Below are positions 4,806-51,369 of a DNA stretch of 64,000 nucleotides, in pieces (within the stretch, counting starts at the first letter, position 1; each line of letters starts with the position of its first letter). The position numbers and the translations under genes were made by a program. This DNA is from a virus, in IMG/VR virus record IMGVR_UViG_3300027244_000003; one strand, 5' to 3'. The notes beneath the pieces were generated by a model. That model searched no databases and was not told the DNA's origin. It saw only the letters and a program-made list of their open reading frames with translations.

Positions 4806-5440
4806 TATTAGTTGATTTAGCAAAAGTAGAAAACATTATTTCAAATAGTCCAGCTGGTAAGAATACAAAATTCTTATCGGCTGCACATTCATTATGGTAT
4901 CGGTTTCACAATTATGACAAAGCATTACCAATGGCTTATGAAGTTAATGGTGATGTTGTTTGTTTAATCTTTGCTACATTCAATCGTGATGGTTATGCCA
5001 ACCTGTATGAGATCGTAACACTCGAAGGAAAAGAAGGAAATGGATACGCATCAAAGTGTTGGGACGCATGGATTAAATACGCAGTCGAAGAACGAAAGTC
5101 TAAACGACTTAAAATCTCTTGCACACCTTCTTCAGTCACATGGCATTATCGCAATGGACTCATCTTCTGGGCAGTTGACCCGACTGGCTCGTTACGTTCT
5201 GACCAACCATTATTCTCAACTAGGCAAGAGCAAATTAGCTACAGAAATAATGCTATTATCAATCCATCCTCTGCTCTGCCACCAAGCAAAGCACAAGATC
5301 AGTTTAGGTTAGAAGGATTAGAATTATATAAATGGGGTGACAAGAAGAAAGAAAAAACTCAAACAGCAATTGATGCAGTTGGTACAGCATGGCTACGAGA
5401 TGCTCTTATGAATCAACCAACACTACAAGAATTTTTATAA
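4802..5440 (+). CDS. GNAT-like acetyltransferase
   Basis: Motif A-like LYEIVTLEGKEGNGYAS; stop/start coupled within the modification cassette. Confidence 0.6.
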   Translation: MILVDLAKVENIISNSPAGKNTKFLSAAHSLWYRFHNYDKALPMAYEVNGDVVCLIFATFNRDGYANLYEIVTLEGKEGNGYASKCWDAWIKYAVEERKSKRLKISCTPSSVTWHYRNGLIFWAVDPTGSLRSDQPLFSTRQEQISYRNNAIINPSSALPPSKAQDQFRLEGLELYKWGDKKKEKTQTAIDAVGTAWLRDALMNQPTLQEFL

Positions 5441-42274: not shown

Positions 42275-43246
42275 ATGAAGAAGATTTTAGTTACATTATT
42301 GCTGGCAGTTTCTGCATCTGCCTTTGCTCAGTGGCAACCAACAAAACCTATTGAAGCGATTATGGCATGGACTCCAGGAAGTGTCAATGAATTGTCATTC
42401 CGTATCTTAGCTAAACAGGTTGAGCAAAATACTGGTGCAAAATTTATTATTATGAATCGTGCTGGAGCAGGTGGTGTGATTGGTACAGAAGAGTTGAGTA
42501 AGAAACCAGCTGATGGATATTCAGTTACCAACGTATCAGTTCCAGGTATTGCAGCAATGGACAAAGTTCAAGTCCAAGGTAATGGTCGTAGTTATACTAC
42601 TGACAGTTTTGTTTACCCAACACACATTGCATCTAGTCCATTCGTGATTGCGTCACATCCAAATGATCCAGCCAAAACTCCGAAACAATTTTTAGATTCT
42701 TTAAAGAATGATAAGGTTTCCATTGCTGCGTCTGGTGGTGCACGTTTAGTCTATGAAGGTATCTCTGCTCGTGTTAAATTTCCAGAAGGTAAAGATGGAG
42801 TAGTTCGAGTTGACCACAAAGGTCCAGTCGATGCACTGGTAGATGTTGCTAGTGGTAATGTTCGTTATGCGATTGTTCCATCTCTAGTTGCAAATGCTCT
42901 TTACAAAGATGGGCGCATTAACATTATTGCTCTAAGTGCTCCACCTCCAATGCGTCAATTCCCAGGAATTCCATTGTTGGATACTGCTTTACCAAATTTC
43001 AACATCACAGGTATGTGGGCTCTTATGCTTCCAGCTGGAACTCCAAACGATGTAGTTGAATGGTATACCAGAGAGTTCACAAAGGCTATGAAGTCGGATG
43101 AAGCAAAGGCTATCTTCTATGATAATCTACTCTTAGAAAGAACAGACTTACAGAATCCTAAATCAATGGGAGAGTGGGTGAAGTCTCGTGAAAAACAGTG
43201 GCAACCTCTGGTTGATACAGTTTTAATCAAAAATAATCAAAAATAA
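42275..43246 (+). CDS. Bug/TctC tripartite tricarboxylate transporter substrate-binding protein
   Basis: Signal peptide, P.KPI..I..W.PG, NRAGAGG.IG, ADGY, HKG...A..DV..G, PAGTP. Confidence 0.85.
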   Translation: MKKILVTLLLAVSASAFAQWQPTKPIEAIMAWTPGSVNELSFRILAKQVEQNTGAKFIIMNRAGAGGVIGTEELSKKPADGYSVTNVSVPGIAAMDKVQVQGNGRSYTTDSFVYPTHIASSPFVIASHPNDPAKTPKQFLDSLKNDKVSIAASGGARLVYEGISARVKFPEGKDGVVRVDHKGPVDALVDVASGNVRYAIVPSLVANALYKDGRINIIALSAPPPMRQFPGIPLLDTALPNFNITGMWALMLPAGTPNDVVEWYTREFTKAMKSDEAKAIFYDNLLLERTDLQNPKSMGEWVKSREKQWQPLVDTVLIKNNQK

Positions 43247-43268
43247 TCAAACTCTAACTTAAAAAAGT

Positions 43269-43276
43269 TATAAATA
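43269..43276 (+). promoter_or_regulatory. T4-type late promoter
   Basis: TATAAATA upstream of the ferritin-like gene. Confidence 0.7.
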
Positions 43277-43342
43277 GAATCGTGTGATGTGCCAATTTTT
43301 GGATCACCGTTAACTTGTAAACAACTTAAAGGAATTACAAAA

Positions 43343-44122
43343 ATGACAGCTACTACAGTTAAACCAGCAAAAGAATTTTTAGACGATCTATGGGAATCTT
43401 TCATGCCCTTACATAAAGTTGCCGAGATCCAAACTCGTCAGTTCTTTGCAGAAAAAGGTAAAGATAAAGAAGCCCTAGAAAACTTCTTCCATATTCGTCT
43501 CTCTAACGAGCGCATGAACATGATTGAACTTTCTAAGAAAGTTTCTGAACTACCAGCCCTAACAGATCCAGAAGAGTGCCGTTTGCTTTCTAAGCAAGCA
43601 TGGGACGAAGCTGAGCACTTCCGTATTGTATACGAAGTTCTTGAGCATCTAACTGGTGAAAAGCCAAACCTAGAAAAAATCTGGGAAACTTATGGTAAAG
43701 TTGATGTCCGTATGGGCGCATCTTTGATCCAGAAGTATGAGGCTCATGGTAATCCAATCATGATGCACTTGTATCAGTACATGGCTGAAGGTCGTGCCTC
43801 TCACGTTTGGAACACAATGGCACAATGTGCTGGCGATGAGTTCATTCAGAAGCGTTATGATCGTGTTGCTCGTGACGAAAAGTTCCATAGCAATATCGGT
43901 CGTTTGATGCTTGAGAAAATTGTTACTACTCCAGAAGCACAAGCCGAATGTTTGTCTTTGGTTAAAGAAATGGTTTGGGATCTATTTGAGTGTTCATGCA
44001 CTTCATTGGGTGATTTCAAGACTGCTTCTCCAGAAGTTCAACAAATCATGGTAGAAGGATATGGTCAACCACATCGTGATCTATGTGTTGAGTTCAATGG
44101 TAAGGAAGCACTCGCTGCTTAA
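43343..44122 (+). CDS. Ferritin-like di-iron carboxylate protein
   Basis: NE...DEAEH...AEG...DEKFH: paired E/ExxH ligands. Confidence 0.75.
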   Translation: MTATTVKPAKEFLDDLWESFMPLHKVAEIQTRQFFAEKGKDKEALENFFHIRLSNERMNMIELSKKVSELPALTDPEECRLLSKQAWDEAEHFRIVYEVLEHLTGEKPNLEKIWETYGKVDVRMGASLIQKYEAHGNPIMMHLYQYMAEGRASHVWNTMAQCAGDEFIQKRYDRVARDEKFHSNIGRLMLEKIVTTPEAQAECLSLVKEMVWDLFECSCTSLGDFKTASPEVQQIMVEGYGQPHRDLCVEFNGKEALAA

Positions 44123-44138
44123 TTAACCTTTCTTTGTT

Positions 44139-44702
44139 ATGAGAATTTTGATCTCAATGAGGGATTTTCGGATCCCTCCTAATAATTTTTTATTCGATTG
44201 CCTAGAAAGAAGCTGGTATTCTTTCCTAGGCAATCATCATTTAATCCCCCATGCAAATACAAGAACAGTTGATGAAACTATCGACTTTGATTGTTTAGTG
44301 TTGTCTGGTGGATCTGATAGTGTAGCAAGAAATGTTACAGAGAATCTTTTATTTCTCCATGCAATCAAACGCAAGAAACCTATCCTTGGTATATGCCATG
44401 GAGCATTTGTTGTCAATGAGTTGAGTGGTGGAAAAAATCAGATTGATTGGAACAATGTACCAACGCATGAGAACAGTGAACATGAAGTAACAATGGATGG
44501 CAAGAAAGTTCTTGTCAATAGTTATCATGGACAGACCATCACACAACTTGGTCCACAAATGATTCCACTTGCCATACATGAACCAGACAAAACAATCGAA
44601 GCATTCAAACATCAAGCACTGCCAATTTATGGCATTGTGTGGCATCCAGAGAGAATGGATGTACCAGTCCTACCAGAAGAAGTTGCAATTCTTTTAAAAT
44701 AA
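44139..44702 (+). CDS. Class I glutamine amidotransferase (peptidase C26/PuuD-like)
   Basis: LSGG, LGICHG, VNSYH, WHPE. Confidence 0.85.
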   Translation: MRILISMRDFRIPPNNFLFDCLERSWYSFLGNHHLIPHANTRTVDETIDFDCLVLSGGSDSVARNVTENLLFLHAIKRKKPILGICHGAFVVNELSGGKNQIDWNNVPTHENSEHEVTMDGKKVLVNSYHGQTITQLGPQMIPLAIHEPDKTIEAFKHQALPIYGIVWHPERMDVPVLPEEVAILLK

Positions 44703-44705
44703 TTG

Positions 44706-44834
44706 TTGACTTTCATCAAATAGTACTGTATAATAGGTGCTGTAGTGATGAAAAACTCCTATATAAATAATAACCCTACGAAATGTAAGGTTGTTAAAAG
44801 TAAGTTTGACTTTAATCCGAAAGAAGAATATAAT
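44706..44834 (+). promoter_or_regulatory. Promoter cluster for the tRNA array
   Basis: TTGACT-17-TATAAT (44706-34); late TATAAATA (44762-69); palindrome AACCCTAC-N5-GTAAGGTT (44772-92); TTGACT-17-TATAAT (44806-34). Confidence 0.8.
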
Positions 44835-44840
44835 TCTACC

Positions 44841-44966
44841 ATGAACTCGAAAATGATATCCTCGTTAAGCAGAAAGCATCTACCGCTAGTTAATAGTGGT
44901 TGGACATGCTCACGCCCACAGTATACATTTGCGATTGAGTTGGACAGTGGGGTTTTTGGAAAGTAA
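44841..44966 (+). CDS. Putative attenuator leader peptide MNSKMISSLSRKHLPLVNSGWTCSRPQYTFAIELDSGVFGK
   Basis: ATG 6 nt after the -10 box (predicted +1, leaderless); all 20 amino acids in 41 codons; stop lies inside the antiterminator arm. Confidence 0.65.
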   Translation: MNSKMISSLSRKHLPLVNSGWTCSRPQYTFAIELDSGVFGK

Positions 44967-45030
44967 AGTAAACAGACAAAGTTTATTTCCCAAAACCCTC
45001 TACCTGAAAAGTTAGAGGGTTTTTTGTTTT
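44949..45030 (+). terminator. Mutually exclusive antiterminator/terminator pair
   Basis: Terminator AAAACCCTCTA (44992-45002) / TAGAGGGTTTT (45013-23) plus T-tract; antiterminator GGGGTTTTTGGAAAGTAAA (44949-67) pairs with TTTATTTCCCAAAACCCT (44982-99). Confidence 0.75.
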
Positions 45031-45071
45031 AGGGGTTGACGATAGTGTCAACATGAGATAAGATCTCGCCC

Positions 45072-45087
45072 TGTTCTTTAAAAATTT
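45072..45087 (+). promoter_or_regulatory. rrn-type boxA antitermination element
   Basis: TGTTCTTTAAAAATTT versus rrn boxA TGCTCTTTAACAATTT; hairpins upstream, first tRNA 13 nt downstream. Confidence 0.6.
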
Positions 45088-45100
45088 GCGTACCAAATGT

Positions 45101-45174
45101 TCCCGAGTGGTGTAGTGGTAGCACAGCAGACTTTGACTCTGCTAGTATAAGTTCGATTCTTATTTCGGGTGCCA
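45101..45174 (+). tRNA. tRNA-Gln(TTG)
   Basis: Cloverleaf, GCAGA-CTTTGAC-TCTGC, CCA. Confidence 0.9.
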
Positions 45175-45266
45175 AACAAAAACACATTGATCATCTAATT
45201 GGTCAGGATGGTGTTCGTAAGGCATTAAATGTAGGTTCGAATCCTACTCAATGTGTTTTTGTTTGG
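45172..45266 (+). ncRNA. tRNA-like element with a 19-bp extended acceptor helix and no CCA
   Basis: D arm and T arm GTAGG-TTCGAAT-CCTAC; weak anticodon arm with loop TCGTAAG; perfect 19-bp terminal inverted repeat. Confidence 0.6.
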
Positions 45267-45275
45267 TAAGTTTTT

Positions 45276-45349
45276 GGGGGTATAACTTAGTGGTAAAGTA
45301 GTAGGCTTTTAACCTATTAACCAGAGTTCAATTCTCTGTGCCCCTACCA
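45276..45349 (+). tRNA. tRNA-Lys(TTT)
   Basis: GTAGG-CTTTTAA-CCTAT, CCA. Confidence 0.9.
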
Positions 45350-45354
45350 ATTAT

Positions 45355-45429
45355 GGTGTCGTTAGTTTAGTGGTAAAACTACGGGTTGTGATTCCGTCAT
45401 CATGAGTTCAATTCTCATACGATACCCCA
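45355..45429 (+). tRNA. tRNA-His(GTG)
   Basis: ACGGG-TTGTGAT-TCCGT, G-1/C73, CCA. Confidence 0.9.
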
Positions 45430-45437
45430 ATTTTTAT

Positions 45438-45513
45438 GCCGAGATAGCTCAGTTGGTAGAGCACTTGTTTGAAGCACAAGGTGTGGGCGGTTCGATCCCG
45501 TCTCTCGGTACCA
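45438..45513 (+). tRNA. tRNA-Phe(GAA)
   Basis: CTTGT-TTGAAGC-ACAAG, CCA. Confidence 0.9.
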
Positions 45514-45518
45514 GTTAT

Positions 45519-45593
45519 TCCCGATTAGCTCAGAGGTAGAGCAATCGCTTGATAAGCGATAGGCGAGTGGATCGTTACCACTATCGGGAACCA
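45519..45593 (+). tRNA. tRNA-Ile(GAT)
   Basis: ATCGC-TTGATAA-GCGAT; atypical T loop ATCGTTA; CCA. Confidence 0.85.
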
Positions 45594-45599
45594 AGTTTC

Positions 45600-45673
45600 G
45601 CCCTATTAGTATAATGGCATTACACCTGTTTTGTAATCAGGTTACGGCAGTTCGATTCTGTCATGGGGCACCA
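45600..45673 (+). tRNA. tRNA-Thr(TGT)
   Basis: CCTGT-TTTGTAA-TCAGG, CCA. Confidence 0.9.
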
Positions 45674-45681
45674 AGTTTTTA

Positions 45682-45755
45682 CTCCGATTGGTGAAATGGT
45701 ATCACTCATGGTTTGGGACCATGGAGCGCAAGTTCGATTCTTGCATCGGAGACCA
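45682..45755 (+). tRNA. tRNA-Pro(TGG)
   Basis: CATGG-TTTGGGA-CCATG, CCA. Confidence 0.9.
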
Positions 45756-45762
45756 AAGTTTT

Positions 45763-45837
45763 GCATCGTTAGCTCAGTGGTAGAGCGTCTCGTTTACACC
45801 GAGAGGGTCGGCAGTTCGAAACTGTCACGATGTACCA
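45763..45837 (+). tRNA. tRNA-Val(TAC)
   Basis: TCTCG-TTTACAC-CGAGA, CCA. Confidence 0.9.
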
Positions 45838-45843
45838 AGTTAA

Positions 45844-45935
45844 GGAAGATAATGCAGCGGGGTTGGTCCTGCGACCAGCCTTGAAAACTGGGTTCTGAGA
45901 AATCGGATGGGGTTCGACTCCTCTGTCTTCCGCCA
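45844..45935 (+). tRNA. tRNA-Ser(TGA)
   Basis: Loop CTTGAAA, long variable arm, GCCA. Confidence 0.85.
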
Positions 45936-45941
45936 GATTAT

Positions 45942-46016
45942 GCGTCTTTAGTAAAATGAATATTACACATCGCTACGAACGATGAAGTGGGAGTTTGATT
46001 CTCTCAGGACGCACCA
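45942..46016 (+). tRNA. tRNA-Arg(ACG)
   Basis: CATCG-CTACGAA-CGATG, CCA. Confidence 0.85.
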
Positions 46017-46023
46017 AGAGTTA

Positions 46024-46113
46024 GGAAGATGGGCAGGACGGTAATGCAGCAGTTTGCTAAACTGTAGATTATAGGAATATGGTCACAGGGTTCGACTCCC
46101 TGATCTTCCACCA
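46024..46113 (+). tRNA. tRNA-Ser(GCT)
   Basis: GCAGT-TTGCTAA-ACTGT, long variable arm, CCA. Confidence 0.85.
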
Positions 46114-46119
46114 GAGTTT

Positions 46120-46196
46120 GCGGATATGATGGAATTGGTATACATATCAGACTTAAAATCTGAGTTCTCCGAGTTCGACTCTCGGTATCCGCACCA
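46120..46196 (+). tRNA. tRNA-Leu(TAA)
   Basis: TCAGA-CTTAAAA-TCTGA; short variable region; CCA. Confidence 0.85.
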
Positions 46197-46203
46197 AGTT
46201 TAT

Positions 46204-46278
46204 ACGGCATTAGTATAATGGATAATACAGTAGGCTTCTACCCTACGAATGTGGGTTCGATTCCTGCATGCCGTACCA
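46204..46278 (+). tRNA. tRNA-Arg(TCT)
   Basis: GTAGG-CTTCTAC-CCTAC, CCA. Confidence 0.9.
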
Positions 46279-46284
46279 GAGTTT

Positions 46285-46359
46285 GGGCAGGTAGCTTAAT
46301 GGTAAAGCAGTGAACTCATAATTCATTGAGTCTGTGTTCAATTCACAGTCTGCCCACCA
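46285..46359 (+). tRNA. tRNA-CAT (probably Ile2, possibly Met)
   Basis: GTGAA-CTCATAA-TTCAT; GGGC acceptor; CCA. Confidence 0.8.
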
Positions 46360-46362
46360 AGT

Positions 46363-46467
46363 TTTGTAGTCATAGCCTGGAGCTAGGGTAAGGGGTGTTG
46401 CGGAACCACAGCGTGGCGTTAAATATCGAGGCGCAACTTAATCAGATTGTGTTCGACCTGCTACAAA
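46363..46467 (+). ncRNA. Unassigned structured RNA
   Basis: Terminal stem TTTGTAGT/GCTACAAA, GC-rich interior, no ORF. Confidence 0.4.
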
Positions 46468-46475
46468 TTCATTAT

Positions 46476-46553
46476 GCCCCGATGGACAAATTGGCAAAGT
46501 CGTCTCTCTCAAAAGGAGAAATGTTGTGAGTTCAAATCTCACTCGGGGTACCA
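46476..46553 (+). tRNA. tRNA-Leu(CAA)
   Basis: TCTCT-CTCAAAA-GGAGA; short variable region; CCA. Confidence 0.85.
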
Positions 46554-46559
46554 AGTTAT

Positions 46560-46633
46560 GTAGGTGGAGCCAGTTGGACAGGCACTGGATTGCAAACCCA
46601 TGGAAGTGAGTTCGATTCTCACCATCTACTCCA
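46560..46633 (+). tRNA. tRNA-Cys(GCA)
   Basis: Loop TTGCAAA, U73, CCA; weak anticodon stem. Confidence 0.8.
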
Positions 46634-46659
46634 AAGTTGCAAGTTAGTTAAAATACTTG

Positions 46660-46688
46660 TTGACACCAATGCCTAGATGGTGTATAAT
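46660..46688 (+). promoter_or_regulatory. Consensus sigma70 promoter inside the tRNA array
   Basis: TTGACA-17-TATAAT. Confidence 0.8.
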
Positions 46689-46835
46689 ATAGTCTAGTTG
46701 GTTAGGAATTCAAAAGTCCCTTCTGAGTCTTTGTTGCGAAACAAAGCGTAGGGCAAAGTGGTCTGAATGTTGCAACTCGCTTACATTCTCCCACTCAGTG
46801 CTTTGATAGTTTCCACTTCAAGAAACTATCACCAT

Positions 46836-46910
46836 GCTCGGTTCGTCTATCGGTTAGGACACTGCCCTTTCACGGCAGGAAGAGGGGTTCGATTCCCCTA
46901 CCGAGTACCA
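46836..46910 (+). tRNA. tRNA-Glu(TTC)
   Basis: CTGCC-CTTTCAC-GGCAG, CCA. Confidence 0.9.
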
Positions 46911-46911
46911 G

Positions 46912-47132
46912 ATTTAATTGTATTGGGTTGCCAATACCAGTAGGTGATTTATGCAGAGAACTAAATCCTAGTGACGGCTAGGCTCTGCTGAGTTACACGA
47001 AACCTTGAGATCATATCAGGAGGACGCTGGATAAAGTTGGAACGTAATGTGGTTGACAAACAAGTCCATGGACGGCATGGTAGGGCAGGTTCAAAACTGT
47101 TATTTTTGTCAAACATCCCAGTATAATTAAAT
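46912..47132 (+). ncRNA. Unassigned structured RNA (~220 nt)
   Basis: 16-bp terminal helix ATTTAATTGTATTGGG/CCCAGTATAATTAAAT with G-U pairs; internal hairpins. Confidence 0.55.
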
Positions 47133-47133
47133 G

Positions 47134-47288
47134 TGGTATTAGTTTAGTATTATCAAGGTATCGTGTATGGACGCATGCACTACTCGACAGTTAGGGTGCG
47201 ACTGACACTGTCTGATATAACTGCCACTCGCTCGCCAGAGGAAGCACCTTTATTGGCAAATGGGCACGATAATACTAAACTAATATCA
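47134..47288 (+). ncRNA. Unassigned structured RNA (~155 nt)
   Basis: 21-bp terminal helix TGGTATTAGTTTAGTATTATC/GATAATACTAAACTAATATCA. Confidence 0.55.
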
Positions 47289-47289
47289 T

Positions 47290-47382
47290 GGAGCAATTGA
47301 TGCTATGGCGTGTGCATCCTCAGACTGTAAATCTGATCCCTCTGGGTAAACAATCTTGGTTCGACTCCAAGTTGCTCCACCA
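47290..47382 (+). tRNA. tRNA-Tyr(GTA)
   Basis: TCAGA-CTGTAAA-TCTGA, long variable arm, CCA. Confidence 0.85.
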
Positions 47383-47581
47383 GTTCTCGTTACTACTTTC
47401 GTTAAAGTAGCGTTTGACTAGCGATAGAGGTTCGGTGGCAGAAAACCGTAAGCGAGGTGAAAACCCTCAGACTCTGATAGGCAGAATCTCAACTGCACAC
47501 AGACTAAAGAATAAATGGAGATGGACAGAGTAACTGCTCGATTAGGGGCTGGGTTGGAAACCAGTAGCCTATACTTATTTT

Positions 47582-47656
47582 GGCTCGTTCGTATAATGGT
47601 CATTACGTCGGATTGTCTATCCGATCACGGGAGTTCGATTCTCCCACGAGTCGCCA
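47582..47656 (+). tRNA. tRNA-Asp(GTC)
   Basis: TCGGA-TTGTCTA-TCCGA, GCCA. Confidence 0.9.
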
Positions 47657-47747
47657 GTTTTGTGGTAAGGAAAGTAAAAGGAGAATGGGCAACGAATAGG
47701 GGTTTGAACCCTGAGTAGTAGATACCTCACCTGCCACAAATTAGTTT

Positions 47748-47863
47748 TGTAAATGCTGTTTACAGCAACCGAGTTACAAGTTTAGAGTTGAGGCTCTAAT
47801 ATCGAAAGATAATTAGTTCACTAATACCGTGTTACAAGTGAAGGGTTGAGGCTCTTCTTTACA
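47748..47863 (+). ncRNA. Structured RNA with two covarying repeat modules
   Basis: ACCGNGTTACAAGT-[6-bp stem, TTGAGG loop] twice, at 47768-99 and 47826-57. Confidence 0.55.
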
Positions 47864-47875
47864 TATTTTTATTAT

Positions 47876-47950
47876 TCCAGTGTAGCACAGCGGTAGTGCA
47901 GTTGACTGTTAATCAATTGGTCGTAGGTTCGATCCCTGCCACTGGAGCCA
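47876..47950 (+). tRNA. tRNA-Asn(GTT)
   Basis: GTTGA-CTGTTAA-TCAAT, GCCA. Confidence 0.9.
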
Positions 47951-47985
47951 GTTTTTGTTGTTTGTTATTATTTGAAAGGTTTGAT

Positions 47986-48573
47986 ATGGAAATGATTAAT
48001 CTACGCAAAGCAAATGCGTTGCAAAGCGAGATCCGTAAAGCGATCTCTAGTTCTGGTGTTAGCGATACTGCTACCATCACTGAGTACACCAAAGATATTG
48101 CTGGTGGTCTTGAGAAAGCAATGGCAGATTATGCCACTGATGTTACTCGTAAGGTAGCATTGAACACTGCGTTGTTTAACATTCGTAAAAGTGTTGCTCA
48201 AGCAAATGCCAACAATGGTATTAGCGATATCCTCGCTGATGTTGAGTTGATCGATGCCAAGATCACAGTTTATAGCGCAGTTGCTACCAAAGCAGTTGCC
48301 AAAACTCTTGATGAGATCAATGCTCGTATCGAGAAGATGAAAACTGCACCAACTGATGCTACTGGTCGCAGTGCTATCTATGGCGATCGTTACAACACAG
48401 TGGAAACATCTGTTGTTGAGCAAAGCACTATTGATGCTGCCAAACAAATCGTAAAGCAATTGAAGCGTGAGAAACAAACTCTTCAAGATAAGTTGTTGGC
48501 TCTGAATGTCAACAGCATGATTGGTATCGATAATGTTGACGAGATGGTATTGAAGATAGAAGGTATTCTGTAA
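47986..48573 (+). CDS. Helical coiled-coil protein within the tRNA array (DIP1984/DUF6847-like, tentative)
   Basis: GAAAGG SD then ATG 47986; INLRKANALQ...LKREKQTLQDKLLALN. Confidence 0.7.
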   Translation: MEMINLRKANALQSEIRKAISSSGVSDTATITEYTKDIAGGLEKAMADYATDVTRKVALNTALFNIRKSVAQANANNGISDILADVELIDAKITVYSAVATKAVAKTLDEINARIEKMKTAPTDATGRSAIYGDRYNTVETSVVEQSTIDAAKQIVKQLKREKQTLQDKLLALNVNSMIGIDNVDEMVLKIEGIL

Positions 48574-48579
48574 AGTTTA

Positions 48580-48831
48580 GAGGGACAATGCGAATACGAG
48601 AGCAGATGGATAGTTGCAAAAACTAATATCCTACAAAGATATTGGATCAGGTCTTGAAAACCCTATTCCGAACATCGTGCCCAAACTTATAGTGTTATGC
48701 TCCACGTTTATACTTGACTGTTATAGTCGCTGCTTGTTGCTACGTGGATAAACTCTTGTGGGCTGTTTTTTGAATGTTGCGTGTTGCATATTGCATCGCG
48801 ACTATTCGCTTGAATTGAAACATTGTTCCTC
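48580..48831 (+). ncRNA. Unassigned structured RNA (~250 nt) directly after the coiled-coil gene
   Basis: Terminal helix GAGGGACAATG/CATTGTTCCTC, then GCGAATA/TATTCGC; heptamer repeats TGTTGCG-TGTTGCA-TATTGCA. Confidence 0.55.
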
Positions 48832-48853
48832 GCCTTATTATAAGTAGTTCTGT

Positions 48854-48929
48854 TGCGGGAAGGGTCTGGTCACCAGCGAGGTCTCATAAGCCTTTGCCAT
48901 CCTTGGTTCGAATCCAAGTCCCGCTACCA
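48854..48929 (+). tRNA. tRNA-CAT, probably initiator fMet
   Basis: Loop CTCATAA, unpaired 1:72, GCGGG acceptor, shortened D arm, CCA. Confidence 0.7.
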
Positions 48930-48933
48930 AAAT

Positions 48934-49010
48934 GCCCCGATGACGGAATTGGTATACGTGTTGGTCTTAGAAGCCAAATTTTGCGAGTTCGAGTCTCGCT
49001 TGGGGCACCA
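48934..49010 (+). tRNA. tRNA-Leu(TAG)
   Basis: TTGGT-CTTAGAA-GCCAA; short variable region; CCA. Confidence 0.85.
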
Positions 49011-49016
49011 AATTTC

Positions 49017-49091
49017 GGTGATGTAGCACAACGGTAGTGCAACTCCTTCATACGGAGTAGGTTAGTGGCTCGATTCCACTCATCACCACCA
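49017..49091 (+). tRNA. tRNA-Met(CAT), probably elongator
   Basis: ACTCC-TTCATAC-GGAGT, CCA. Confidence 0.8.
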
Positions 49092-49108
49092 CATAAGTAG
49101 TTAAGTTC

Positions 49109-49182
49109 GGGGGATTAGTATAATGGGATTACGGCAGCTTTGCAAGCTGTTTATGAGAGTTCGATTCTCTCATCCTCCACCA
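49109..49182 (+). tRNA. tRNA-Ala(TGC)
   Basis: GCAGC-TTTGCAA-GCTGT, G3:U70, CCA. Confidence 0.9.
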
Positions 49183-49186
49183 ATGT

Positions 49187-49260
49187 ATCTCGATGGTGTA
49201 ATGGCAGCATAGCAGTCTCCAAAACTGTTGGTTGGGGTTCGAGTCCCTATCGGGATGCCA
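49187..49260 (+). tRNA. tRNA-Trp(CCA)
   Basis: GCAGT-CTCCAAA-ACTGT, GCCA. Confidence 0.9.
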
Positions 49261-49267
49261 AGTTTTT

Positions 49268-49341
49268 GCAGGGTTAGTTTAATGGTAAAACAGCAGATTT
49301 CCAATCTTCGGTTGAGAGTTCGATTCTCTCACTCTGCTCCA
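49268..49341 (+). tRNA. tRNA-Gly(TCC)
   Basis: Loop TTTCCAA, U73, CCA. Confidence 0.9.
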
Positions 49342-49372
49342 AGTTTTTAATGAGGTAAGAAAAGAGGTAGTT

Positions 49373-49846
49373 ATGCGTAAAGCAATCAACATAGATGAAG
49401 TCAGAGATTTCATCTTGGCACAGACTCCAGAAACCAAGATCTATATTGGTGGTGACTCTGAAAGATTCTTAATAGGAAAAGATTGGTACGCAGATTACAT
49501 TATGGTTGTTGTTGTTCACATCAATGGAAACAATGGCTGTAAGATTTTTGGTGAAGTACAACGTGAACGTGACTGGGATAAGAAACGAGACAAGCCACGT
49601 ATGCGTTTAATGAACGAAGTTTATAAAATTGCAGAGTTGTATCTAAAGTTGCATGATATATTAGAAGATCGTGAAGTGCAAGTTCATCTGGACATCAATC
49701 CAAATGAAATGCATGGTTCTTCTTGTGTTATCAATGAAGCAGTTGGTTACATCAAAGGTATGTGTAACGTAGTACCAATGGTAAAGCCAAGAGCATTTGC
49801 TGCTTCATACGCTGCAGATAGATATAAGTCGTACATGGCTGCATAG
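49373..49846 (+). CDS. RNase H-like YkuK/DUF458 family protein
   Basis: IYIGGDS, RLMNEV, VHLDIN, VKP.AFAASYAADR. Confidence 0.8.
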   Translation: MRKAINIDEVRDFILAQTPETKIYIGGDSERFLIGKDWYADYIMVVVVHINGNNGCKIFGEVQRERDWDKKRDKPRMRLMNEVYKIAELYLKLHDILEDREVQVHLDINPNEMHGSSCVINEAVGYIKGMCNVVPMVKPRAFAASYAADRYKSYMAA

Positions 49847-49847
49847 T

Positions 49848-49922
49848 GCAGGATTAATTCAGTGGTAGAATGTCACGTTGCCAACGTGAATGTCATCGGT
49901 TCGAATCCGATATCCTGCTCCA
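49848..49922 (+). tRNA. tRNA-Gly(GCC)
   Basis: TCACG-TTGCCAA-CGTGA, U73, CCA. Confidence 0.9.
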
Positions 49923-49944
49923 AGAGCACATAAGTAGTTATATC

Positions 49945-50020
49945 GCCCTCATAGCTCATTTGGTAGAGCATCTGTTTAGTAATCAGAAGGTGGTCAGTTC
50001 GAAACCGACTGAGGGCACCA
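49945..50020 (+). tRNA. tRNA-Thr(AGT)
   Basis: TCTGT-TTAGTAA-TCAGA; GCC acceptor like the Thr(TGT) copy; CCA. Confidence 0.8.
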
Positions 50021-50033
50021 AATTGAATAGATT

Positions 50034-50216
50034 ATGTTATTTCCAAAAAAAAATAAACGCAGTAGATGGTTTGTGCTTTTAGCCAAAGCACTCGGAGAAA
50101 AGATAGGCAATACAGATGAGGAAGCTGATCGTGTTGCCTACATTCGTATTTGCATTGTTGCTATTTACATAATTGCAAACATCTTTATTATAGCAGGTGT
50201 GATCAGACATTGGTAA
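50034..50216 (+). CDS. Small membrane protein
   Basis: AKALGEK...EADRVA.IR...IIAGVIRHW. Confidence 0.6.
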   Translation: MLFPKKNKRSRWFVLLAKALGEKIGNTDEEADRVAYIRICIVAIYIIANIFIIAGVIRHW

Positions 50217-50221
50217 ATAAT

Positions 50222-50779
50222 ATGAGTATTTTCTTAGGCATAACCATATACCAATCTACTATATCTGATGACTTCTATAGTTTTTTGTTGAAGGAATATG
50301 ACAACTTACAATCATACGAGAAACTGTATCAGAATGAGAATTTCTGGGGTGGATCTGATTATAGATTCGTTAAAGATTCTACAAGAGATTACATACAGAG
50401 TAATCTAATTACTCATGTAAAACATTATATTAATACAATTAATGTTTCTTTGCGTGATCAATGGATCAACATTCAAGCACATGACGGATACCTACCAACA
50501 CATAATCATACTGGTAATATTTCATATGTAATATACCTGAAAGTTCCAGATTACCTCAAAAACTATAAAGATAAACTACCCAACGATATAGGATATTCAG
50601 AAGGTGCGATACAATTTAATTATGGACATGAGACTTCTTTATTTCCCTGTAATACTATGATAAAACCAGAAGAGAAAATGATTCTTATGTTTCCTTCTGA
50701 GTTGCAGCATTATGTTTATCCATTTAGAGATAGAGAAAGTTTACGTGTATCTATTTCAGGAAATTTAGATTTATTATAA
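50222..50779 (+). CDS. 2OG-Fe(II) oxygenase-like (HxH type)
   Basis: WIN...P.HNH, SYVIYL, FPS.L.H.V.P, RVSISGN. Confidence 0.75.
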   Translation: MSIFLGITIYQSTISDDFYSFLLKEYDNLQSYEKLYQNENFWGGSDYRFVKDSTRDYIQSNLITHVKHYINTINVSLRDQWINIQAHDGYLPTHNHTGNISYVIYLKVPDYLKNYKDKLPNDIGYSEGAIQFNYGHETSLFPCNTMIKPEEKMILMFPSELQHYVYPFRDRESLRVSISGNLDLL

Positions 50780-51369
50780 TGGATATAGTAGAAAACTTTA
50801 TCTACACTGAAATGTTAGATCATGATTTGCATACGCAGAGGAAGACTGCACACTACATGCAAAATTATATAAACAATGAGTTTAGTGATGGAAGAGAATT
50901 CAATGGGCAAGTAACCCTATCAACAAAGTTGTTCGACAAGTACAACTATCTAATGTATCCACTTCCAGGTATATACCAACTCTACAGTTCTATTAAAAAC
51001 GTATTCCATAAAGTAAATGATGGATTGTACGAGGACTATTTCATTCAGTGTTGGTTAAATTTTTACTACAAAGGTGACTTCATTGATTGGCATGGACATT
51101 GGCCAACTGAAGCAGAATCATGGCATGGATTCTATTGTTTAGATGTAGAGCCAGAATCATACACAGAATATAAGTTAGAAGATAAACTTATTAAAGTTCC
51201 AAGTAAAGATAACCTACTCGTTATAAGTAGAAGTGGAAGAGATGTCCACAAATCATCCGAATGGACTGAAGATCGACCAAGAATAACAATAGCATTTGAC
51301 ATAGTACCAGCAGAGAAATTGTTTGACGTTGGTGCATATCGCAATCCGAATCACTGGATACCGATTTGA
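50779..51369 (+). CDS. 2OG-Fe(II) oxygenase-like
   Basis: WLN...WHGH...H...RITIAFD. Confidence 0.7.
   Translation: MDIVENFIYTEMLDHDLHTQRKTAHYMQNYINNEFSDGREFNGQVTLSTKLFDKYNYLMYPLPGIYQLYSSIKNVFHKVNDGLYEDYFIQCWLNFYYKGDFIDWHGHWPTEAESWHGFYCLDVEPESYTEYKLEDKLIKVPSKDNLLVISRSGRDVHKSSEWTEDRPRITIAFDIVPAEKLFDVGAYRNPNHWIPI

Follow-up and report, generated by a model that had tools for sequence, protein, structure and literature searches.

A candidate leader-peptide attenuator that samples every amino acid ahead of a phage tRNA array

We describe a short leader open reading frame (ORF), an RNA helix that overlaps its 3' end and an intrinsic terminator, which together precede a large tRNA array in a 64,000-nucleotide stretch of viral DNA (IMG/VR virus record IMGVR_UViG_3300027244_000003; the entire stretch is termed the window). 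The leader packs codons for all 20 amino acids into 41 codons, and its relatives in other phages have kept this completeness while the positions of individual residues moved. Established are the anatomy of the element, its conservation, the selected completeness of the peptide, the covariation of helix and terminator, the constant link to a tRNA array and the thermodynamic consistency of the switch. We favour the view that the element carries out ribosome-dependent attenuation, answering to the decoding of its leader ahead of the phage tRNA operon. Such a device would be new, in being a leader-peptide attenuator that samples every amino acid and controls tRNA genes. The features on which the argument rests are listed below in window coordinates.

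44806..44834, + strand: promoter P2 (TTGACT-17-TATAAT), with its -10 ending 6 nt 5' of the ATG at 44841
44841..44966, + strand: leader ORF of 41 codons and TAA, specifying 20 amino acids with 33 different codons
44949..44967, + strand: region 2, the 5' arm of the putative antiterminator helix, formed by the last six codons and the stop
44982..44999, + strand: region 3, the 3' arm of this helix, whose last 4-5 nt (44995/6-44999) double as the base of the terminator 5' arm
44996..45030, + strand: intrinsic terminator, with a hairpin at 44996-45019 and a U-tract at 45020-45030
45101..50020, + strand: array of about 29 tRNA genes for all 20 amino acids, the first being tRNA-Gln; the presumed regulated target

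The element is confirmed at these positions. The spacing between the P2 -10 and the ATG places +1 on or beside the A of the ATG and the mRNA would therefore be leaderless; no Shine-Dalgarno (SD) site precedes ATG 44841. The terminator hairpin has 7+2 base pairs (bp) and a GAAA loop (-11.3 kcal/mol). In the minimum free energy (MFE) fold of the window leader, helix 44955-67:44982-94 is present together with the terminator hairpin and its U-tract, and an extra pairing, GGGG(44949-52):CCCU(44996-99), competes with the terminator base. ARAGORN located 27 tRNAs in the array and Rfam added two that it had missed, a tRNA-Cys (46560-46630, anticodon GCA) and a long-arm tRNA-Ser (45844-45931, anticodon UGA), both anticodons being read by eye; with these two genes the array covers all 20 amino acids. 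The original prediction for this DNA had proposed a near-consensus promoter with +1 at ATG 44841 and no SD, the 41-codon ORF with its 20 amino acids and 33 codons, 19 amino acids inside codons 12-35, pairing of the last codons and stop with 44982-99, a terminator followed by 28 tRNA genes, and two further promoters at 45036-64 and 46660. Each of these features was recovered, with the tRNA count raised to about 29.

Two DNA patterns retrieved the element from more than 100 IMG/VR phage contigs. The one derived from the helix matched 103 stretches in IMG/VR; its opposite-strand matches were rejected, being the reverse reading of this palindromic helix and terminator. The other, built on the Trp-Arg-Pro codons, is independent of the helix and supplied further family members that had not been baited with it. 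Additionally, the gene for a class-I glutamine amidotransferase (GATase) that adjoins the window leader upstream, used as a query, led to eight contigs with the same layout. Wherever a contig extends far enough past the leader, a tRNA array on the same strand follows, its first gene 109-630 nt from the leader stop. The arrays begin with tRNA-Gln, or with tRNA-Arg in two loci, no tRNA lies upstream of the leader, and most full arrays hold tRNAs for all 20 amino acids. On the other side, the nearest upstream ORF is drawn from 19 unrelated clusters, and only 14 of 102 loci have the GATase in this position. Since the upstream neighbour varies and the downstream array is constant, the element belongs to the tRNA array and travels with it. 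It had been predicted that related arrays would be preceded by a short ORF of diverse composition and divergent sequence with covarying helices, and all of this was found.

Two more features upstream of P2 bear on how the leader is transcribed and started.

44706..44734, + strand: promoter P1, sigma70-type (TTGACT-17-TATAAT), a twin of P2
44772..44792, + strand: conserved hairpin of the CCTAC...GTAGG type between P1 and P2

The ORF is open at all family loci, with a length of 36-46 codons and a recognisable peptide motif (LP, GW, R, AIE, D, GFGK). Indels within it are in frame and the stretch 5' of the ATG has 1-nt indels; an extension to 73 codons from GTG 44745 was ruled out by such indels in relatives. 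When 79 distinct 5' regions were surveyed, a -10 ended 6-7 nt before the ATG in 53 and 10 nt before it in 14, and nine carried an AAGGA-type SD 8-12 nt upstream without an adjacent promoter. These nine would therefore be transcribed from P1, which is the sole leader promoter in relatives lacking P2. That the same start codon is served by two mechanisms, leaderless or SD-led, argues strongly for translation of the leader ORF. In three freshwater metatranscriptome runs, contig depth over the leader and over the upstream gene was 14.9 versus 2.2, 11 versus 4.7 and 149 versus about 6, and one contig covers 44685-45106, across the terminator; as these RNA contigs display neither transcript ends nor strand and may include DNA, they lend weak support to expression, and no meaning attaches to stretches that they leave uncovered.

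Within the window, all 20 amino acids are reached in 41 residues by 0.5% of the windows taken from this phage's proteins, by 0.3% of six-frame open windows and by 0.8% of random codon strings, and at least 19 amino acids in 24 residues by fewer than 0.1% of comparable windows. The comparison with same-length gene windows, suggested in the original prediction, thus finds the leader rare but modestly so when taken alone, and since 216 ATG ORFs of 30-60 codons are present in the window, these figures are by themselves only suggestive. Comparative data across the family make chance untenable. Of 78 distinct leader peptides (36-46 residues), 64 contain 20 amino acids and 14 contain 19, the amino acid missing from the latter being Val, Cys or Gln; Trp is absent from one further variant. 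Column-shuffle and residue-count tests were carried out on the first 63 peptides, 51 of which are complete, as compared to 8.1 +/- 2.4 expected after shuffling (maximum 20 in 5000). Trp, Tyr and Asp each occur exactly once in 63/63 peptides, His is single in 61/63 and Cys in 58/63.

These single residues are not tied to one place. In the same alignment Tyr occupies six positions, Cys six and His seven, and on a tree of 75 loci the minimum number of position changes is 18 for Tyr, 16 for Cys and 14 for His. We compared phylogenetically independent pairs in which one member has the residue at its commonest site and the other does not: the opposite change elsewhere in the peptide was observed in 6/6 pairs for Tyr, 6/7 for His and about 5/9 for Cys (17 in total), and a change in the same direction in no pair for any of the three. 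Outside the helix, the ratio of nonsynonymous to synonymous substitution (dN/dS) is about 0.6-0.7 and the differences are distributed 36/25/39% over codon positions 1/2/3. Completeness retained at a dN/dS of only this order indicates that selection acts on the composition of the peptide and not on its exact sequence. The amino acid absent from a 19-type leader showed no pattern with the tRNA absent from its array, in a comparison with few informative loci.

Codon choice extends this sampling to isoacceptors. Among 67 distinct ORFs, Arg is encoded by AGR in 63 and by CGN in 66, Ile by ATA in 63 and by ATY in all, Ser by both AGY and TCN in all, Leu by TTA in 65 and by CTN in all, and Gly by GGY in all and by GGR in 59. 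In the window leader itself the separate boxes AGA and CGC, TTA, TTG and CTA, ATA and ATT, and TCN and AGY are represented and match tRNAs of the array, in agreement with the original prediction. The latter had also remarked on the use of scarce codons, and TCG, CCG, GCG and GGG indeed make up 5-6% each of their synonymous sets in this phage. The codon adaptation of the leader is 0.50, against 0.715 +/- 0.073 for gene windows, and 0.6% of windows score as low.

The 3' end of the ORF obeys a different constraint. RNAalifold, applied to 62 leaders, returned one conserved structure, the helix between the last codons and the stretch ending in CCC(U), and none within the first 100 nt of the leader. 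Over 82 distinct sequences the helix is 95.1% paired and six of its pairs have changed on both sides; 0 of 500 shuffles reached the observed covariation score, and sliding the partner reduced pairing to 65% or less. The un-baited members are instructive here. In one group, GGGUUUGG:CCAAACCC, a single U in the 5' arm and a single A in the 3' arm have been deleted together, so that the frame of the tail is shifted and GFGK lost with the helix retained. In two other un-baited groups, UUUUGG:CCAAAA has become UUCUGU:ACAGAA or UUUAAG:CUUAAA. Because compensatory changes restore pairing while the peptide tail is rewritten, it is the RNA helix that selection has kept in this part of the ORF. In all members the stop codon falls inside or just beyond the 5' arm of the helix. 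The terminator is kept as well: all of its 28 hairpin variants pair (-10 to -18 kcal/mol), and the 12 nt behind each include no fewer than 9 T. As a whole, the leader folds somewhat better than its shuffles (z = -2.5), and synonymous positions are conserved in places, for example in CACGCCCA.

The consequences of ribosome position were modelled by equilibrium thermodynamics: in 82 full leaders, CCC was forced to pair either in the terminator base or in the antiterminator. These alternatives are almost equal in energy (median difference -1.0 kcal/mol, range -6.2 to +3.7). Without a ribosome, the mean probability is 0.38 for the terminator-base pair and 0.61 for the antiterminator pair. Masking 30 nt around a stop codon in the A site brought the terminator-base pair to 1.00 in all leaders, and a ribosome 12 codons upstream of the stop gave a mean of 0.84 for the antiterminator pair. 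When the stall position was moved along 25 leaders, an A site in the last 8 codons resulted in termination, whereas the antiterminator probability was 0.6-0.86 at codons -10 to -21 and about 0.5 at earlier codons. The model therefore reproduces the predicted logic, in which a ribosome at the stop would favour the terminator and an earlier stall the antiterminator, together with the caveat that stalls at the last codons would still mask the antiterminator, here the last 8-9 codons. In the cell, the order of transcription should further favour the helix, because it is synthesised before the 3' arm of the terminator.

Two features separate the terminator from the first tRNA gene in the window.

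45036..45064, + strand: weaker promoter (TTGACG-17-TAAGAT), 9/12 matches
45072..45084, + strand: boxA-like element TGTTCTTTAAAAA, just 5' of the first tRNA

We surveyed 77 distinct spacers between terminator and first tRNA. In 25 of them the spacer measures 28-49 nt and carries no promoter-like site, and the first tRNAs would therefore be reachable only through the terminator. A boxA-like core, TCTTTAA[AC]AA, lies ahead of the first tRNA in 63/77 spacers (L002-L203), which suggests rrn-style processive antitermination by Nus factors for an untranslated tRNA operon.

Taken together, these data lead us to propose the following sequence of events, in which the response of read-through to where the ribosome stands, and tRNA supply as the quantity being sensed, are our inference. 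The transcript from P2 (and P1) would be translated at once from its 5' AUG, leaderless here and SD-led in some relatives. Its last codons and stop would serve as the 5' arm of a helix (about 17-19 bp) whose 3' arm ends in CCC(U), the same nucleotides that make up the base of the terminator stem. If the ribosome is at the stop while the polymerase makes the terminator, it would hold the 5' arm and leave CCC(U) free, so that the full terminator forms and transcription stops. If the ribosome is delayed at an earlier codon, possibly by a tRNA that is scarce, uncharged or cleaved, or has never loaded, the helix would form first and hold CCC(U). In this state a part of the polymerases would pass the boxA-like site and enter the tRNA genes. 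The outcome would be a feedback loop in which slow decoding raises phage tRNA synthesis and fast decoding lowers it.

A stronger form of this proposal, which we advance tentatively and at slightly less than even confidence, is that the leader senses the complete tRNA pool and that loss of any one tRNA species switches on the phage's complete tRNA set. As the leader holds codons for every amino acid and for most split boxes, any such loss would delay the ribosome, whether it came from host anticodon nucleases, tRNA turnover after host shut-off or starvation. The array would be turned down again once phage tRNAs had restored decoding.

Several observations weigh against attenuation by the leader, or narrow its reach. 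The antiterminator and the terminator overlap by only 3-5 nt, and the overlap, CCC followed by U or C, is invariant; covariation can therefore not assign the shared CCC(U) to the helix, although the outermost pair, G/A:U or G:C, is compatible with the helix in all sequences. The MFE fold of the window leader lets a shortened helix coexist with the whole terminator. No conserved anti-antiterminator (1:2) pairing is supported, the candidate CCCAC:GUGGG being 72% paired and no better than shuffled or slid controls. The window's own leader is weaker than others, with a maximum antiterminator probability of 0.53; its position 44953 is T where relatives and RNA contigs have G, which turns Gly37 into Val and weakens the modelled antiterminator. 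Stalls in the last 8-9 codons would go unsensed; in most members these codons include the only one for Asp, and in some those for Tyr or Glu. Every folding figure comes from the equilibrium model, and the RNA contigs, as said above, reveal no transcript ends. The leader has no copy in 50,697 cultured phage records searched at the DNA level and by tblastn, where only tRNA-Gln matched.

Promoters beyond the terminator limit the reading further. A sigma70-like site, often with 11-12/12 matches, occurs in 52 of the 77 spacers, the window's included, and a perfect promoter also stands inside the window array at 46660. The site at 45036-45064 could provide expression of the array that is independent of the attenuator. 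Given these promoters, the leader in most members, including the window, appears to modulate transcription of the array and not to be its sole gate, adding regulated read-through from the strong P1 and P2 to what the separate promoter delivers. A second mini-ORF attenuator behind the 46660 promoter, which might have covered Asp, Glu and Gly, was looked for and none was found.

The same switch could instead report ribosome initiation on the leaderless mRNA and the pace of the ribosome relative to the polymerase, the sensed variables being ribosome or initiation-factor availability and global elongation rate, with individual tRNAs playing no part. The anatomy and the folding results suit this possibility as well as they suit tRNA sensing, leaderless starts predominate in the family, no single codon is repeated in runs, and in the model the antiterminator reaches only about 50% when the ribosome stalls early. 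We nevertheless judge it unlikely: it leaves unexplained the retained 20 amino acids, the Cys, His and Tyr residues whose relocation is compensated, the split-box sampling and the preference for rare codons, and nine of the distinct 5' regions use an SD and not a leaderless start.

It is less probable still that the ORF is a small gene in its own right, encoding a trans-acting peptide of about 40 residues, with the helix as a 3' stabiliser and its place before the array inherited by synteny. The family-wide peptide motif, the separate post-terminator promoter of most arrays and the high representation of the unit in RNA contigs would agree with such a gene. Its dN/dS of about 0.6-0.7 would not, nor would codon usage in the worst 0.6% of gene windows, and the C-terminal tail has been rewritten by frameshifting deletions that restore the RNA helix. 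The peptide has no Pfam match and, in 1.8 billion representative proteins, no homologue outside the leader family. The arrangement of the loci argues in the same direction, as tRNAs have no promoter of their own in 25/77 spacers and the upstream neighbour changes while the array never does; completeness with moving residues is again left unexplained. That the ORF is incidental to a structured 5' leader or a small RNA ending at the terminator is highly improbable, since the somewhat better folding than shuffles, the synonymous conservation in places such as CACGCCCA and the rare codons that might speak for it are outweighed by an ORF that stays open at more than 100 loci, its many indels all preserving the frame, by start signals maintained through two mechanisms, by completeness far above shuffled expectation, and by the lack of any Rfam match or RNAalifold structure in the first 100 nt. 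All three alternatives are ranked below attenuation governed by leader decoding because each leaves the selected completeness of the peptide unexplained.

Leader-peptide attenuators are known from enterobacteria, where trpL, hisL, leuL, pheL and thrL have been described along with the multivalent ilvL, which senses Ile, Leu and Val. As in these trp-type systems, the promoter is followed by a short ORF with start signals and then by an intrinsic terminator, both ahead of the regulated genes. An alternative helix, whose 5' arm a ribosome can occupy, overlaps the 5' arm of the terminator and is incompatible in full with it, the distance from stop to terminator (about 55-65 nt) resembles that of trp, and the position of the leading ribosome would, as proposed here, decide which structure forms. 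The phage leader differs in having no run or cluster of control codons for the amino acid of an operon, each of the 20 occurring mostly once or twice, and in preceding tRNA genes and not biosynthetic enzymes. It is also phage-borne and its mRNA mostly leaderless, the overlap with the terminator is confined to 3-5 nt without a conserved 1:2 hairpin, and the untranslated default is, in the model, roughly balanced and not terminated. Another analogy is the E. coli pheM leader of pheST (phenylalanyl-tRNA synthetase), in which a component of translation is attenuated by charged-tRNA supply; pheM, however, is a cellular leader that responds to Phe codons alone and regulates a synthetase, not tRNA genes. 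T-box riboswitches likewise offer an analogy, as a terminator/antiterminator switch tied to the tRNA pool and placed before translation-related genes. They bind one specific uncharged tRNA directly, without translation, whereas the reader of the tRNA pool would here be the ribosome, and the leader contains no specifier loop, no T-box sequence and no Rfam T-box match.

Database searches place the leader outside described families. Pfam returned no match to the peptide, and profile searches of 5.8 billion proteins and of 1.8 billion representative ones returned only this leader family, all of it unnamed. An Rfam search of 44000-51000 with E up to 1 gave only tRNA genes and weak sub-threshold overlaps, and nothing for the leader. 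A full-text literature search found no description of such an element, consistent with the original prediction, which knew of no described example.

The window itself is part of the genome of an uncultured, distantly T4-like phage. One of its proteins, of 1133 residues, matches cytidylyltransferase-annotated genes in T4-like phages of Synechococcus and Prochlorococcus and in Stenotrophomonas and Methylophilales phages. Upstream of the leader lie three unusual auxiliary genes, spanning 42275-44702.

42275-43246: TctC-family periplasmic binding protein with a signal-like N-terminus
43289-44122: 277-residue protein without a Pfam match
44139-44702: class-I glutamine amidotransferase / peptidase C26 protein (the GATase), upstream neighbour of the leader

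The stretch between P1 and P2 also contains, at 44762-44769, TATAAATA, a perfect late-promoter motif of the T4 type, and a TAAATA core recurs right after the P1 -10 in many relatives; on these grounds the leader may also be transcribed late. Hairpins with CCTAC-loop-GTAGG, similar to that at 44772-44792, are found 10-20 nt 5' of sigma70-like promoters, both ahead of P2 and ahead of post-terminator promoters. Examples are seen in L006 (about 4960-5140) and in the spacers of L039, L107, L125 and L131, so that hairpin and promoter look like a repeated cassette. In the relative L088 (leader stop at 2841), the array holds 31 tRNAs, including a tRNA-Ile with anticodon UAU and a tRNA with anticodon CUA, labelled Pyl by ARAGORN, which is a possible amber suppressor.

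Why phages carry large tRNA arrays, and how these are expressed, is an open question. Current ideas include codon-usage matching, replacement of a degraded host tRNA pool and escape from anticodon nucleases. With the element described here, this phage probably makes more tRNA when decoding by ribosomes is slow. If so, expression of the array would be coupled to decoding performance, and these would be, as far as our literature search could show, the first tRNA genes under leader-peptide attenuation. A peptide selected to include each amino acid at least once leaves an unusual evolutionary signature, one that could be looked for elsewhere. Were the stronger form of the proposal to hold, leader-peptide attenuation would extend from the sensing of one amino acid to an audit of the whole tRNA pool, and the phage would encode both a homeostat and a counter-defence circuit for that pool.

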